DNA of 47,745 nucleotides from an uncultured Eubacteriales bacterium (GTDB taxonomy: Bacteria > Bacillota > Clostridia > Oscillospirales > Oscillospiraceae): NCBI GenBank assembly GCA_905202605.1, contig CAJKSU010000001.1, forward strand, positions 1 to 47,745, given 5' to 3'. Of the stretch, positions 8,704 through 13,604 are shown in pieces; the first letter of the stretch is position 1, and each line of letters opens with the position of its first letter. The notes beneath the pieces are model-generated. The model was not told the DNA's origin. It worked only from the letters and a program-made list of their open reading frames with translations, and did no database searches. A program made the translations under genes and the position numbers.

Positions 8704-9957
8704 TTATTCGTACAGGGGGAACTTTGCGGTAAGCGCATCCACGCGGGCGGTAATCTCATCCTTCTTGGTGTCGAAGTGGAAGATGCAGTCGGCGATGCAG
8801 TCGGCAATTTCCTTCATCTCTGCAACACCCATGCCGCGGGTGGTAACGGCGGGAGTGCCGAGCCGCAGACCGGAGGTGACGAAGGGGCTGCGCTTTTCAC
8901 CGGGAACGGTATTCTTGTTGGCGGTGATATGCACCTCGTCCAGATTGTGCTCCAGCTCCTTGCCGGTGCATTCCTCATCGGTGAGATCCACCAGCAGCAG
9001 ATGGTTGTCGGTGCCGCCGGATACCAGCTTTACACCGCGGGCCAGCAGCTCCTCTGCCATAGCCTGCGCATTTTCAATGATCTTTCTGCCGTATTCCTTG
9101 AACTCCGGCTTCAGCGCCTCGCCAAAGCAGACGGCCTTTGCGGCAATCACGTGCTCCAGCGGGCCGCCCTGCGTGCCGGGGAAGATGGCCTTGTTGATCT
9201 TCTTGGAGATCTCCTCGTTATTGGTGAGAATCAGACCGCCGCGGGGGCCGCGGAGGGTCTTATGGGTGGTGGTGGTGACCACGTCGGCATAGGGGACGGG
9301 GCTTTGATGATAGCCCGCCGCCACCAGACCGGCAATGTGCGCCATGTCCACCATCAGCAGCGCGCCGTTGTCATGGGCGATCTGCGCAATGCGCTCAAAA
9401 TCAATGGCACGGGGATAGGCGGAGGCGCCGGCAACCACCAGCTTGGGCTTGACCTCGGCGACCTGCTGGGCCATCTTGTCATAGTCGATGAAGCCCTGCT
9501 CGTTGACACCGTAGGAGACAAAGTGATAGTTCTTGCCGGACATGTTGACCGGGCTGCCATGGGTCAGGTGACCGCCCTGACTGAGATCCATGCCCATAAC
9601 GGTATCGCCCAAATCGAGCAGACCGAAGTAAACCGCCATGTTGGCCTGCGCACCGCTATGGGGCTGTACGTTGGCATAGGCAGCACCGAACAGCTCCTTG
9701 GCGCGGTCAATGGCGATCTGCTCTACCTCGTCTACATACATGCAGCCGCCGTAGTAGCGCTTGCCAGGGTAGCCCTCAGCGTATTTGTTGGTAAGAATGC
9801 TACCCATGGCGGCCATGACCGCCGGGGATACAATGTTTTCGCTGGCGATCAGCTCAATGTTCTGGCGCTGACGGTGCAGCTCACGGTTCATGGCAGCGCC
9901 CAGCTCAGGATCAACAGCGGCAACTGCGCCGATGGTATCTATCATTGTTTCATACAT
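8704..9957 (-). CDS. glyA: Serine hydroxymethyltransferase
   Basis: [34 protein letters not shown] and the PLP-lysine region [14 protein letters not shown]. Start set at ATG 9957 (AAAGGGAG RBS). ATG 9978 is an in-frame alternative. Confidence 0.95.
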
Positions 9958-10045
9958 AGGAATCGGACTCCCTTTCATGTGAATTGCCTTACTGCCTTGG
10001 CAGAGGCAATATTATTTGATGTGGCTAACTTATTGATATGGTAGG

Positions 10046-10074
10046 ATTATACTCCAAAAATCGCCTGCATACAA
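10046..10074 (-). promoter_or_regulatory. Sigma-70-type promoter for glyA
   Basis: Minus strand reads TTGTAT (10074-10069), a 17-nt spacer, then TATAAT (10051-10046). The -35 lies inside the upstream operon's terminator hairpin. Confidence 0.55.
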
Positions 10075-10097
10075 CAGAAAACTGTGCAGGCAGGCGA
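10061..10097 (-). terminator. Rho-independent terminator of the peptidase-like/RelA-SpoT-like operon
   Basis: Imperfect hairpin (CGCCTG/CAGGCG outer stem, ACAG/CTGT inner stem) followed on the minus strand by TTTTT (10060-10056), 56 nt after the stop at 10153. Confidence 0.65.
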
Positions 10098-10152: not shown

Positions 10153-11058
10153 TCAGCGCTTCCGGGCGCAGTCATCGATGCTGAGCAGCAACTCCGGTGG
10201 TGTCATGGCGGTGATTTCCGGGTTGTGGATTACCAGCGCATTGGTCAGAAACACCAGATTGTCCAGTGTAAGCAGAAAGCCGTGGAAACGACTGTCTGAG
10301 AGAAAGTCCAAGACGCTGAACCGATCGATTTGATACAGCTCGGCTGCAAGGTCAGGACGCTGATCCAGCAGCCGGCAGAGCGCCGGAGCAAGGGGCTGCT
10401 CCTCTACATGAACCCGGAGCTTGTTTTTCAGCATCGCCGTCCAGTCCTTTTCCCGGTACTTCCGGTCACAGAGCTTGTCAAAGATATTGAGCATGGACCA
10501 GTCGCAGGTGATCAGCGTGGCAAAGATACCGTTGAGAGCACGGCTCAGATCAGCGCTTCCTGCCCAGTCGGCTTTGGACTTGTACCGGAGGTCGTGCTCC
10601 ACCTCATGCCAGCCCTCGGAAAAGACAGTGCGCAGCTGGATCTCCACGGTGGTATCAATGGGGTAGTTGTCATAGATGGCACTGGGCAACTCCTGACGGC
10701 AGCTCATGGGCAGCTTACAGATAAAATTCAGCCGGGTGGGGCTGAAGGTGTCGGCGTCCGGGCGGTCCTCGGTAATGGATACCACGGAGAACCGATCCTC
10801 GATGATCCGGCGGCACAGCGCCTGATCGTCCTGAAAATAGACGGCAATCCGGATGCCAAAGAGATCCTGCATCCGTTTTCCGTCCTGATAGTTTTTCACA
10901 TTGAGCTTTGCGCGGGTGGAAGCAGCGGTTTTGGTTCGGGTAAATAGCCGGTAGTATAGGCCGCACTGCTCCAGACCGTCGGTGAGTCTGGTCGCCATGC
11001 TGCGGACAATGGATTCCGGGATCTCCCGGAAGTCCTGCTCCAGATTTGGATATTCCAT
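10153..11058 (-). CDS. RelA/SpoT-domain (RSH synthetase-fold) nucleotide pyrophosphokinase with unassigned C-terminal domain
   Basis: 301 aa. Core synthetase motifs RTKTAASTRAKL, MQDLFGIRIAVYFQDD, EIQLRT and GWHEVEHDLRYK. The last ~125 aa carry no motif I recognise. The RBS is weak (AAGGA 14 nt upstream). Confidence 0.8.
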   Translation of the reverse strand: MEYPNLEQDFREIPESIVRSMATRLTDGLEQCGLYYRLFTRTKTAASTRAKLNVKNYQDGKRMQDLFGIRIAVYFQDDQALCRRIIEDRFSVVSITEDRPDADTFSPTRLNFICKLPMSCRQELPSAIYDNYPIDTTVEIQLRTVFSEGWHEVEHDLRYKSKADWAGSADLSRALNGIFATLITCDWSMLNIFDKLCDRKYREKDWTAMLKNKLRVHVEEQPLAPALCRLLDQRPDLAAELYQIDRFSVLDFLSDSRFHGFLLTLDNLVFLTNALVIHNPEITAMTPPELLLSIDDCARKR

Positions 11059-11109
11059 GGGGTGATTACATCCTTTTTTCGGGACAGCACCGGACTGGGG
11101 CTGCCCATG

Positions 11110-11607
11110 TTATTTTGCGGTGATGGTCAGGGTCAGCGGGAACTTTACATAATCCCAATAAAACTCCGCCATAGAGATGGTGTGATGGGCATAGCCGGGG
11201 ACTGCGCCGAAAAATCGCAGTCTGCCGTCTGGCTGGCGGGAAAATGCGGCGAAGTGATTGGTCTTCCCGGCGCGGTAAAAGACAATACCTGCCCGGCTGC
11301 TCCGGGCAAGCTCCTGAGCGTGGAAGGGGCGCAGGGCAAATTCCAGCGGCACCCCCTGATGGCGCAGTTCATAAACCATGGCAAAAAAATTCAGCCCCAG
11401 CCGCCCGCCGGGCAGCAGCGTCCGCTCCAGCCGATGGAGCAGCACATCCGGGTCTGGGGCCCGATCCAGTGCTTTCAAAAAGTTATAGGCGGCGATCCAG
11501 CCGCAGCCGTTTTTGCTGGAAGGGCAGCCGCCGAAGGAGATCGACTCCGTTTGACGCTGGTCAATGATATAGCCGTCGTCGCTGAGGGCCTTGGGATCAA
11601 GCTCCAT
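11110..11607 (-). CDS. Cytoplasmic papain-fold (peptidase C39-like) cysteine-peptidase-like protein
   Basis: 165 aa with no signal peptide. The Gln...Cys...His order (IIDQRQ, NGCGWIAAYNFL, GKTNHFAAF) resembles C39-like/BtrH-N-like folds. GGAGG RBS 5 nt before the ATG. The fold call rests on motifs only. Confidence 0.55.
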   Translation of the reverse strand: MELDPKALSDDGYIIDQRQTESISFGGCPSSKNGCGWIAAYNFLKALDRAPDPDVLLHRLERTLLPGGRLGLNFFAMVYELRHQGVPLEFALRPFHAQELARSSRAGIVFYRAGKTNHFAAFSRQPDGRLRFFGAVPGYAHHTISMAEFYWDYVKFPLTLTITAK

Positions 11608-11657
11608 AAAAACCTCCGGTTCTGTGTCGATTTTTACGCAATCCTGTCATTTCATTT

Positions 11658-11686
11658 ATTTTATCACATCTGGGGGACTTTTGAAA
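11658..11686 (-). promoter_or_regulatory. Extended -10 promoter for the 11607-10153 operon
   Basis: Minus strand reads TGaTAAAAT (11666-11658), with TTCAAA/TTTCAA at 16-17 nt spacing. Confidence 0.5.
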
Positions 11687-11880: not shown

Positions 11881-12624
11881 ATGAAGCGCGTTACGATCAC
11901 AGCCCTGTCTATGGTACTTGTCTCGGTGGTCCTGCTGTTTATTCTGGATGCAGCGGCGAGCCGGGGAGAAGTAGAAGCCGTGTATGAGGCGATGATTGGT
12001 GCAAAAAATGTCCAGCTGGCGCTGGGGGCTTATGTATCGGAGAACGGCACAACGGCGCAGCTGACGGATGCGGAAATTCAGGCGCAGCTTGATGCCTATA
12101 ATGCCGAGGTGGATCGCTATTATGCCCTGGACAATGTATGCCGGGAGGAATATAAGGATTGGAATGAGACGATGCTGCGGGAATCCTATGTGGATGAAAC
12201 ATTTTATCGGCTGGAGGGCGGCGTGCTGGACTATCAAGTTCACAATTTAGAGTTTAATTCCGAGAAGACGGAAGCTACCCTAAAGTTGACTGCAACGCTG
12301 TATAATAAGTGGATTTCGGAAACGGAGGGCGGCGATTATTGGATTCAGTGCTGTGCAGGCAATACGGAAATGACTGCCGTATTGGTCAAGGAAGATGGCG
12401 ATTGGAAGCTGCTGCGCTATGATTCCTATCAGAAGCAGGAGAACTGGATGCCTCAGGATATCCTGTCCGACCACGGCACGGCGGCCTATGCCGCCTCAGC
12501 GGAGGCGGATGCTGAGGCGCTGGAGGCGGGCGAGCTGGCGAATGCGGAGTATGACAATTTTGCGGATGCTGTGGAGGCGGCAAACCGGATCCATGTTGCG
12601 GATATTTGCCCTCTTTCGGCGTAA
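11881..12624 (+). CDS. Hypothetical membrane-anchored/secreted protein (possible NTF2-like domain, acidic Ala-rich tail)
   Basis: 247 aa with AAGGAGG RBS. N-terminal hydrophobic anchor ITALSMVLVSVVLLFIL. A beta-rich segment (TEATLKLTATLYNKWI...TAVLVKEDGDWKLLRYD) is typical of small NTF2-like lipoprotein domains. C-terminus is AEADAEALEAGELANAEYD. Confidence 0.6.
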   Translation: MKRVTITALSMVLVSVVLLFILDAAASRGEVEAVYEAMIGAKNVQLALGAYVSENGTTAQLTDAEIQAQLDAYNAEVDRYYALDNVCREEYKDWNETMLRESYVDETFYRLEGGVLDYQVHNLEFNSEKTEATLKLTATLYNKWISETEGGDYWIQCCAGNTEMTAVLVKEDGDWKLLRYDSYQKQENWMPQDILSDHGTAAYAASAEADAEALEAGELANAEYDNFADAVEAANRIHVADICPLSA

Positions 12625-12794: not shown

Positions 12795-13604
12795 ATGAAG
12801 CTGAAAGAGGTCTGCGAGTCCACGGGCCTGACCCGTAAGACCATCCGATTGTATGAGGAAAAGGGTCTGCTGGTGCCGCACAAGGAATACCGGAACGGAC
12901 GGGAGTACCGGGAGTACACCCCGGAGGACATAGAACAGCTGCGGGAGATTGCCACCCTGCGCCGGGCATGGTTCACCATGGACGAGATTGCACGGATGCA
13001 GCAGAACCCGGAGACCATCGGGGAGATTTTCCCACAGTATCTCCAGTGGCTGGAGGCTCAGCAGCAGACCCTGCGGCAGCTTTTGTCGGCGGCGAGGGCC
13101 ATTGACCCGGAGCAGGTGAAAAGCGTGGCGGAGCTGTCTCACGGGATGAAGGAAGCGGAGAATATGCCGCTGCCTCAGGCGGATATCAAGCCGAAGTTTC
13201 GATATCTGGATGCGCAGGAGCAGCGTCCGCCGCGGGTTTCCATACAGGATACCATGCTGCTGATGGATGGAAAGCCGCTGCTCTGGCCTTGGGTCTTTAA
13301 GACTCGGAGTCAGGCGATGCTGGACGAGACACGAAAACTGGCAACAGAGACGCAGCCCGTGAAGGATCGTGCACCCCAGAAGGAACCGATATGGCTGAAA
13401 GTCGTGCAGATTCCCATTACCGCCTTGACGTTCTGCGCCTTCGGTGTGGCCTGCCTATACGCCATGGGGATGCGGTTTTTCTGGCAGGCATGGCTGGTAT
13501 TTGCCATCAGCGGCGGTCTATGGGCAGGAATCGCACGATGGCGCTACCGGCGGGAGCAAGCGGCCTGGGTTCAGCGCATGGGCTGGGATCGAGAGACACG
13601 GTAG
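12795..13604 (+). CDS. MerR-family transcriptional regulator with C-terminal two-TM membrane anchor
   Basis: N-terminal MerR wHTH (MKLKEVCESTGLTRKTIRLYEEKGLL...YREYTPEDIEQLREIATLRRAWFTMDEI). Two C-terminal hydrophobic helices (IPITALTFCAFGVACLYAMG, AWLVFAISGGLWAGIA). Confidence 0.85.
   Translation: MKLKEVCESTGLTRKTIRLYEEKGLLVPHKEYRNGREYREYTPEDIEQLREIATLRRAWFTMDEIARMQQNPETIGEIFPQYLQWLEAQQQTLRQLLSAARAIDPEQVKSVAELSHGMKEAENMPLPQADIKPKFRYLDAQEQRPPRVSIQDTMLLMDGKPLLWPWVFKTRSQAMLDETRKLATETQPVKDRAPQKEPIWLKVVQIPITALTFCAFGVACLYAMGMRFFWQAWLVFAISGGLWAGIARWRYRREQAAWVQRMGWDRETR

Follow-up and report, generated by a model that had tools for sequence, protein, structure and literature searches.

A stretch of DNA of 47,745 nucleotides (nt) from an uncultured Eubacteriales bacterium of the Oscillospiraceae (assembly GCA_905202605.1, contig CAJKSU010000001.1, positions 1 to 47,745; hereafter the window) carries on its minus strand two co-directional genes that, judged by their sequences and those of their relatives, would form a lineage-specific two-gene operon with components of different origin. 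The first gene (11110-11607) encodes a 165-amino-acid (165-aa) protein with a papain-like Cys-His fold, defined by its open reading frame (ORF), by alignment, by an AlphaFold2 model and by Foldseek; the second (10153-11058, complete with its stop codon) encodes a 301-aa protein of the RelA/SpoT homologue (RSH) type, defined by its ORF and by Pfam. The 51-nt spacer between them (11059-11109, minus strand) holds an AAGGA motif resembling a ribosome-binding site (RBS) ahead of the RSH ATG, and a terminator scan detected no terminator-like site on its minus strand. Upstream of the first gene lies a sigma-70-type promoter (11658-11685, minus strand) composed of a -35-like TTCAAA, a 16-nt spacer and a TG-extended -10 TAAAAT, which matches at 9 of 12 positions in a consensus scan (4 promoter-like sites were observed in the 2-kb region versus 1.3 expected). 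The RBS of the 165-aa gene, GGAGG (11613-11617, minus strand), was read from the sequence 5 nt before the ATG. An intrinsic-terminator-like element (10054-10097, minus strand) follows the RSH gene, in which a hairpin (10097-10061; RNA fold of -27.2 kcal/mol, z = -5.3 versus shuffles) runs into a U-run (10060-10054, AUUUUUG); a simple terminator scan overlooked the hairpin because its stem is imperfect. Downstream lies glyA (8704-9978, minus strand), and the upstream flank is a divergent plus-strand ORF (11881-12624, 247 aa). The preliminary description of the window had claimed precisely this anatomy, with two minus-strand ORFs 51 nt apart, their own extended -10 promoter and GGAGG RBS, their own hairpin and T-run terminator, and a position wedged between glyA and a divergent gene, and each of these elements was recovered.

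Conservation in related loci argues that these operon signals are not products of chance. The promoter ahead of the 165-aa gene, as TTTCAAA...TGATAnAAT, is retained by all 10 related pair-bearing loci, a GGAGG-type RBS in nearly all of the same 10, and a terminator-like hairpin 3' of the RSH gene in 9 of them, while the spacers between the two genes measure approximately 18-64 nt. Likewise, the median ratio of nonsynonymous to synonymous substitution rates (dN/dS) is approximately 0.13 for the RSH gene (dS of approximately 1) and approximately 0.2 for the 165-aa gene, with 0.07 for glyA. Both genes are real and under purifying selection, and the RSH gene is not decaying. A compositional sign of recent transfer was sought and not found, the GC content being unremarkable.

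The 165-aa protein lacks a signal peptide and is cytoplasmic. An alignment of 30 homologues, reaching down to 28% identity, shows no variation at Q17, N33-G-C35-G-W37 or H118, and in the AlphaFold2 model (predicted local distance difference test, pLDDT, of 91.8) C35 starts a helix (35-46) and H118 sits in a strand (116-124). Foldseek returned C39 peptidase domains, Josephin-type clippases, and papain-like toxins of contact-dependent inhibition (CDI), at E values of 3e-5 or weaker and template-modeling (TM) scores of 0.5-0.58, together with staphopain; peptidase domains of phage lysins and tails reached TM scores of up to 0.70. The protein is thus predicted to adopt a papain-like (clan CA-type) Cys-His fold with a helix-borne Cys and a strand-borne His, and the structure prediction suggested as a check in the preliminary description came out in favor of the fold. 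No match was found in Pfam, NCBIfam, PADLOC or PHROG, and searches of PDB sequences returned nothing, whether the protein was submitted as a single sequence or as a profile; a Pfam scan of 30 members gave sub-threshold hints alone (a single member matched Peptidase_C39, at E = 0.077, and a single member C39_2, at E = 0.33), and assignment to a named family was rejected. Given papain-like fold matches but no library match, the original claim of a C39-like papain fold stands as to the fold, the Gln, Cys and His residues and the missing signal peptide, but not as to C39 membership. Compared with the clan CA proteins most similar in fold (the C39 domains of ComA and PCAT1, Josephin-type clippases, CdiA-CT papain-like toxins and phage lysin domains, with TM scores of 0.5-0.7), the protein shares a Cys at a helix N-terminus, a His in a beta-strand and a conserved Gln upstream of the Cys. 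It differs in that Q17 lies 18 residues before the Cys instead of approximately 6, in that no conserved third residue (Asp/Asn) was identified, and in being a cytoplasmic, stand-alone protein with no significant sequence membership. The family, with 1,212 clusters at 50% identity, appears to be old and large and to occur widely in Clostridia and Erysipelotrichia. An N-terminal extension that lacks annotation is common among its members; fused relatives were considered as a functional clue and set aside, since the 265-300-aa forms with such an extension and a single fusion to a GNAT acetyltransferase proved uninformative.

The RSH protein begins with a synthetase (SYNTH) core (residues ~36-165; 10564-10953, minus strand), delimited by Pfam, alignment invariants, Foldseek and a PDB-sequence profile. 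Pfam RelA_SpoT (PF04607) covers residues 40-162 at E = 6e-14 (52.7 bits versus a cut-off of 27), and all of the synthetase motifs quoted in the preliminary description are present, the core set being R41/K43/S47/K51, D65-x-x-G68-x-R70 and E139-x-Q141-x-R143-T144. Across a 26-member alignment R41, K43, K51, D65, G68, R70, E139, Q141, R143 and T144 are invariant, with S47 conserved in at least 90% of members. The protein is predicted to be a pyrophosphokinase of the RSH fold whose catalytic motifs are intact, and it belongs to a family of homologues of approximately 300 aa (1,865 clusters at 90% identity) that match over their full length down to approximately 40% identity. Its AlphaFold2 model (pLDDT 89.5) resembles a small alarmone synthetase (SAS) in the N-terminal part, and among solved structures and sequences those of RelQ and RelP come closest over residues ~36-195 (Foldseek E of ~4e-6), with the donor-ATP and catalytic motifs in common. 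Together with the chromosomal setting beside glyA, these likenesses might suggest an ordinary housekeeping (p)ppGpp synthetase of the RelQ/RelP type that happens to lie next to an unrelated gene, but such an identity is very improbable. The NCBIfam RelQ (YjbM) equivalog, GTPPhKinYjbM, scores 27.6 bits, far under its cut-off of 320. In place of the RelQ G-loop (G-Y-R-S-x-H) stands a non-canonical F105-x-P107-x-R109-L110-N111, of which F-x-P-x-R-L-N is invariant in the family, such that variable position 108 stands opposite the G-loop Tyr and invariant N111 opposite the His. The protein has an additional conserved C-terminal domain of ~100 aa, its family is overwhelmingly NACHT-linked and found in a mobile context, and the gene is dispensable among close relatives. 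The window RSH is not a RelQ equivalog, and it does not have the G-loop that marks RelQ and RelP.

The C-terminal domain (residues ~201-301; 10156-10458, minus strand) is all-helical in the AlphaFold2 secondary structure and conserved in the family, and no PDB fold match in Foldseek covers it, in agreement with the earlier remark that the protein ends in ~125 aa of unassigned sequence (~100-125 aa on the present analysis). Within this domain K239 and R243 are invariant in NACHT-linked relatives and are replaced only in the window clade (K239 by Ala, R243 by Gln), a change consistent with an ancestral interaction or interface having been lost. Fused toxin-antitoxin proteins of the CapRelSJ46 type (7ZTB, 9ERV, 'Salmonella tRNA pyrophosphokinase CapRel') are likewise single-chain RSH enzymes with a C-terminal extension that is possibly autoinhibitory or sensing. 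The window RSH differs from them in that its C-terminal domain is an all-helical bundle with no fold match, in that overall fold similarity is weak (Foldseek E = 2-4e-3), and in that a separate NACHT sensor is the norm in its family; no solved CapRel was matched at E <= 1 when PDB sequences were searched by profile. The family may be the same as cloRel or fpRel (PMC3153485). An assignment by PADLOC was also rejected, as it amounted to a weak PDC-S33 match at the N-terminus only (E = 1e-4).

The usual partner of this RSH family is of a different nature altogether. In a sample of 96 RSH-seeded loci, assembled through look-ups of encoding contigs, a metagenome scan and an IMG/VR scan, 78 have a gene for a protein of ~708 aa directly upstream of the RSH gene, in the same orientation and 0-56 nt away. 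The 165-aa gene takes that position in nine loci, every one in the window clade, with five loci cut at a contig edge and four in other contexts; outside the window clade the NACHT pairing thus accounts for 78 of 82 informative loci (95%). By Pfam the ~708-aa protein combines NA-iREase2 ('NACHT-associated inactive restriction endonuclease 2'), a NACHT/NPHP3_N P-loop region and pentapeptide repeats. The modules sit among recombinases, integrases, and AbiU/AIPR and Fic genes; IncF plasmids of Klebsiella and Yersinia, on which neither gene bears a name, carry them too, as do two IMG/VR contigs. Predicted effectors of bacterial NACHT proteins include alarmone synthetases, and their sensors include pentapeptide repeats (Kibby et al., 10.1101/2022.07.19.500537). 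Taken together, NACHT and RSH appear to constitute a mobile two-gene module with an architecture of the bacterial NLR-like antiphage kind. The resemblance to the bNACHT antiphage proteins of Kibby et al. lies in the placement of the RSH gene directly behind the NA-iREase2-NACHT-pentapeptide gene; it is incomplete in that RSH is a separate gene in this family and not a fused N-terminal effector, and in that the adjacency seen in 78 relatives is absent from the window, which has no NACHT gene. PADLOC v2 holds no model for the NA-iREase2-NACHT-pentapeptide protein, and literature searches on NA-iREase and on NACHT with RelA/SpoT found no paper on this NACHT-RSH module. Examples can be seen at L082 2875-5885, L087 2861-5921, L093 2294-5355 and L178 2848-5831, with 74 more within L081-L176, in hosts that comprise gut Firmicutes and Treponematales.

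Family members with no NACHT gene also occur elsewhere, in ordinary chromosomal contexts (L170 and L169), showing that the enzyme can persist in the absence of the sensor. At L169 (1700-4152) a divergent RSH (~40% identity) follows a 464-aa protein that shows a weak C-terminal NUDIX match and is not a NACHT protein, an arrangement that recalls the hydrolase-type partners of alarmone synthetases. Another NACHT-less derivative, in Lachnospira eligens ATCC 27750 (NC_012780.1; L179 3992-5821), is a 609-aa fusion of an N-terminal RSH domain (35% identity) with an unmatched C-terminal half, starting 4 nt after an adenosine deaminase gene and followed by a response-regulator gene. A metagenome RSH gene (L103 910-1807) is broken across two reading frames near residues 167-170, and represents either a frameshifted pseudogene or an assembly error.

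The window RSH falls within the NACHT-linked radiation. Its clade is monophyletic in 200 of 200 bootstraps, with a nearest sister that is purely NACHT-linked in 181 of 200 and two successive sisters that are so in 160 of 200. This nesting indicates descent from a NACHT-linked effector. Neither the window nor the 11 genome loci with the pair (~6 kb on each side) yielded a NACHT homologue, and the window RSH would therefore be a descendant of the NACHT module and not a member of it. In principle the protein could still serve as effector of a NACHT sensor encoded elsewhere in the genome, in which case its adjacency to the papain-like gene would be incidental. The 95% pairing outside the clade and the strong conservation of the C-terminal domain and of the RSH protein as a whole would suit that situation, and the search for a NACHT partner reached only 47.7 kb of this genome. 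It is nevertheless a distinctly unlikely one, given that NACHT and RSH are tightly adjacent in 78 of 78 linked loci, which suggests that linkage in cis matters, and that the K239 and R243 of NACHT-linked RSH proteins have been lost in the very clade that is devoid of the NACHT gene at these loci.

How general, then, is the association with the papain-like gene? A second sample, seeded with the 165-aa protein, comprised 80 loci (one genome per species) that span Oscillospiraceae, Lachnospiraceae, Peptococcaceae, Christensenellaceae and Erysipelotrichaceae. An RSH gene lies within 6 kb in 11 of the 80, with tblastn and a profile hidden Markov model in agreement, and all 11 of the adjoining 165-aa homologues are at least 62% identical to the window protein and belong to a single Oscillospiraceae clade. 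Even there the RSH gene is not constant. In three close relatives (L010, L011 and L012) the 165-aa gene runs directly into glyA with no RSH in between, and L012 is sister to the RSH-bearing L013 in 300 of 300 bootstraps of concatenated 165-aa and glyA proteins; at least two losses of RSH within the clade therefore follow, and its absence from these relatives marks RSH as dispensable. Comparison of the loci indicates that the RSH gene arrived between the 165-aa gene and glyA, minus the NACHT gene, in the ancestor of one Oscillospiraceae clade, and that it has since then been inherited vertically and would be co-transcribed with the first gene from the conserved extended -10 promoter.

Among distant 165-aa homologues the neighbors are histidine kinase and response regulator genes, NUDIX, Ppx/GppA with PPK1 (polyphosphate kinase 1), membrane proteins and acyltransferases (L050 3636-4897, L030 3495-6531, L040 1863-6621 and L036 5212-5916 are instances of loci with such homologues). 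The idea of a universal partner for the family was rejected, as neighbors vary by lineage and none exists. In Peptococcaceae a homologue follows a histidine kinase and response regulator; homologues follow a NUDIX hydrolase in Erysipelotrichaceae, or Ppx/GppA and polyphosphate kinase 1 in CAG:302-like genomes. Counting RSH, three contexts of the 165-aa family involve nucleotide or polyphosphate enzymes, which may be chance. An EAD-type adaptor domain shared among the RSH C-terminal domain, the NACHT protein and the 165-aa protein was also sought and dismissed, with hhalign probabilities of 2% or less.

In light of these distributions, the explanation that has somewhat more in its favor than against it is that an RSH effector of the NACHT module, sensor-less, was captured by the transcription unit to which an older papain-like gene belonged. 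The first gene would belong to an old cytoplasmic papain-like Cys-His family whose neighbors are lineage-specific, and the ancestor of the second would have been the second gene of a mobile module, behind a ~708-aa NA-iREase2/NACHT/pentapeptide sensor. The RSH enzyme would still move pyrophosphate from ATP onto the 3'-OH of an acceptor, and would recognize that acceptor differently from the way in which RelQ and RelP recognize GDP/GTP, because the G-loop Tyr and His are absent. Deprived of the NACHT sensor, it would serve as an accessory enzyme that can be dispensed with, regulated chiefly through its own helical C-terminal domain and through expression of the operon, with the papain-like protein a co-expressed neighbor and not an obligate antitoxin.

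Several considerations weigh against the capture explanation. Beyond the limited reach of the sensor search, the loci were retrieved by peptide patterns as the best 80 matches per scan, and the trees are neighbor-joining trees of short proteins, that of RSH rooted with three distant RSH proteins. The 165-aa gene stands directly upstream of every RSH gene of the window clade (11 genome loci and nine metagenome loci), the losses within that clade are one-sided (RSH was lost at least twice with the 165-aa gene kept, and the reverse was never seen), and one locus (L009) retains the pair amid entirely different genes on both flanks. These three observations fit a dependence of RSH on the first gene. 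They also form the core of an alternative in which the papain-like protein took over control of RSH after the loss of NACHT, whether as an antitoxin (acting by binding or enzymatically) or as a protease removing or reshaping the helical C-terminal domain, thereby creating a new toxSAS-like type restricted to one Oscillospiraceae clade. The small upstream partner, the gap of 18-64 nt and the single conserved promoter and terminator do resemble toxSAS operons (PMC7229694), both genes are under purifying selection, and the C-terminal residues invariant in NACHT-linked relatives are altered in exactly this clade. Against this, the 165-aa family long predates the pairing and greatly exceeds it in size (69 of the 80 loci lack RSH), its Q17, C35 and H118 are kept with or without RSH, and it has other conserved neighbors; the RSH family does without any small partner in 78 loci; neither homology nor a common adaptor domain links the two proteins; direct reading of the RSH sequence revealed no Gly-Gly or other recognizable cleavage motif; and inheritance of gene order can by itself account for adjacency in a single clade. 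A takeover of this kind is on balance unlikely. The pattern in the clade is compatible with RSH depending on the first gene and also with synteny inherited in one family-level clade, and direct coupling of the two proteins is possible.

The comparison with known toxSAS systems (FaRel, FaRel2, PhRel, PhRel2 and CapRel; Jimmy et al. 2020, PMC7229694) leads in the same direction. As in those systems, a stand-alone RSH protein with an intact active site is encoded in a tight bicistron with a small unrelated partner. In contrast to them, the partner is confined to one clade and is not conserved across the RSH subfamily (nine of 96 RSH loci, against 78 with NACHT), the partner is itself a widespread enzyme-fold protein with conserved catalytic residues of its own, the usual partner of the RSH family is a 708-aa NACHT protein, and the window RSH has no sequence match to solved toxSAS proteins, with a CapRel fold match that is weak relative to RelP/RelQ (E = 2-4e-3 versus 4e-6). 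The proposal of a self-contained toxSAS-like module thus holds for the operon anatomy and for the two folds, but conserved co-occurrence, on which gene-neighborhood analysis had been suggested as a check, is confined to one clade; for most of the 165-aa family the two genes do not occur together, and RSH habitually has NACHT as its partner. The remark that no described pairing of an RSH protein with a cytoplasmic papain-like protein was known agrees with the literature searches, which found none.

Some further features of the flanks and of the sample deserve mention. The 247-aa ORF upstream (11881-12624, plus strand) has a hydrophobic N-terminus, has no family match and no counterpart in related loci, and looks like a strain-specific insertion. 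Beyond it, a MerR-family regulator with a C-terminal hydrophobic extension (12795-13604, plus strand) is a conserved divergent neighbor of the operon in L001, L003, L004, L006 and L007; in related loci this MerR-like gene faces the operon directly, with no 247-aa ORF in between. At L007 a different gene lies downstream of the pair. An Rfam scan of the whole window gave no matches. Genes of the Clostridia type are found on contigs L001, L002, L012 and L040, whose titles read Barnesiella intestinihominis, Flexilinea sp., Bacteroidaceae and Succinivibrio, with the glyA of L001 and L002 being 96-97% identical to that of the window; these are probably mis-binned contigs in 'cleanbin' assemblies.

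The window locus looks more like an immune effector acquired by capture than like an established toxin-antitoxin pair of a new kind. That a papain-like enzyme took charge of the RSH effector once its NLR-type (NACHT) sensor had been lost, making this a protease-gated or protease-neutralized RSH toxin, is doubtful; if true, it would constitute a mode of toxSAS control not described before, and would imply that control of immune effectors can pass from a STAND sensor to a partner of the peptidase type. If the two proteins do not interact, the locus would be an instructive yet ordinary instance of gene capture. In either event it documents an effector of an NLR-like module that appears to have become detached from its sensor, fixed in the chromosome and maintained for long under selection in abundant gut Oscillospiraceae, and it thus provides concrete material for work on how immune effectors become domesticated and on acceptor specificity in RSH enzymes that depart from the canonical type. 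More broadly, two uncharacterized families with no database name have been exposed, namely the NACHT-RSH module and a large family of cytoplasmic papain-like proteins. Of these, the widespread and unnamed NACHT-RSH two-gene module is the more striking by-product.

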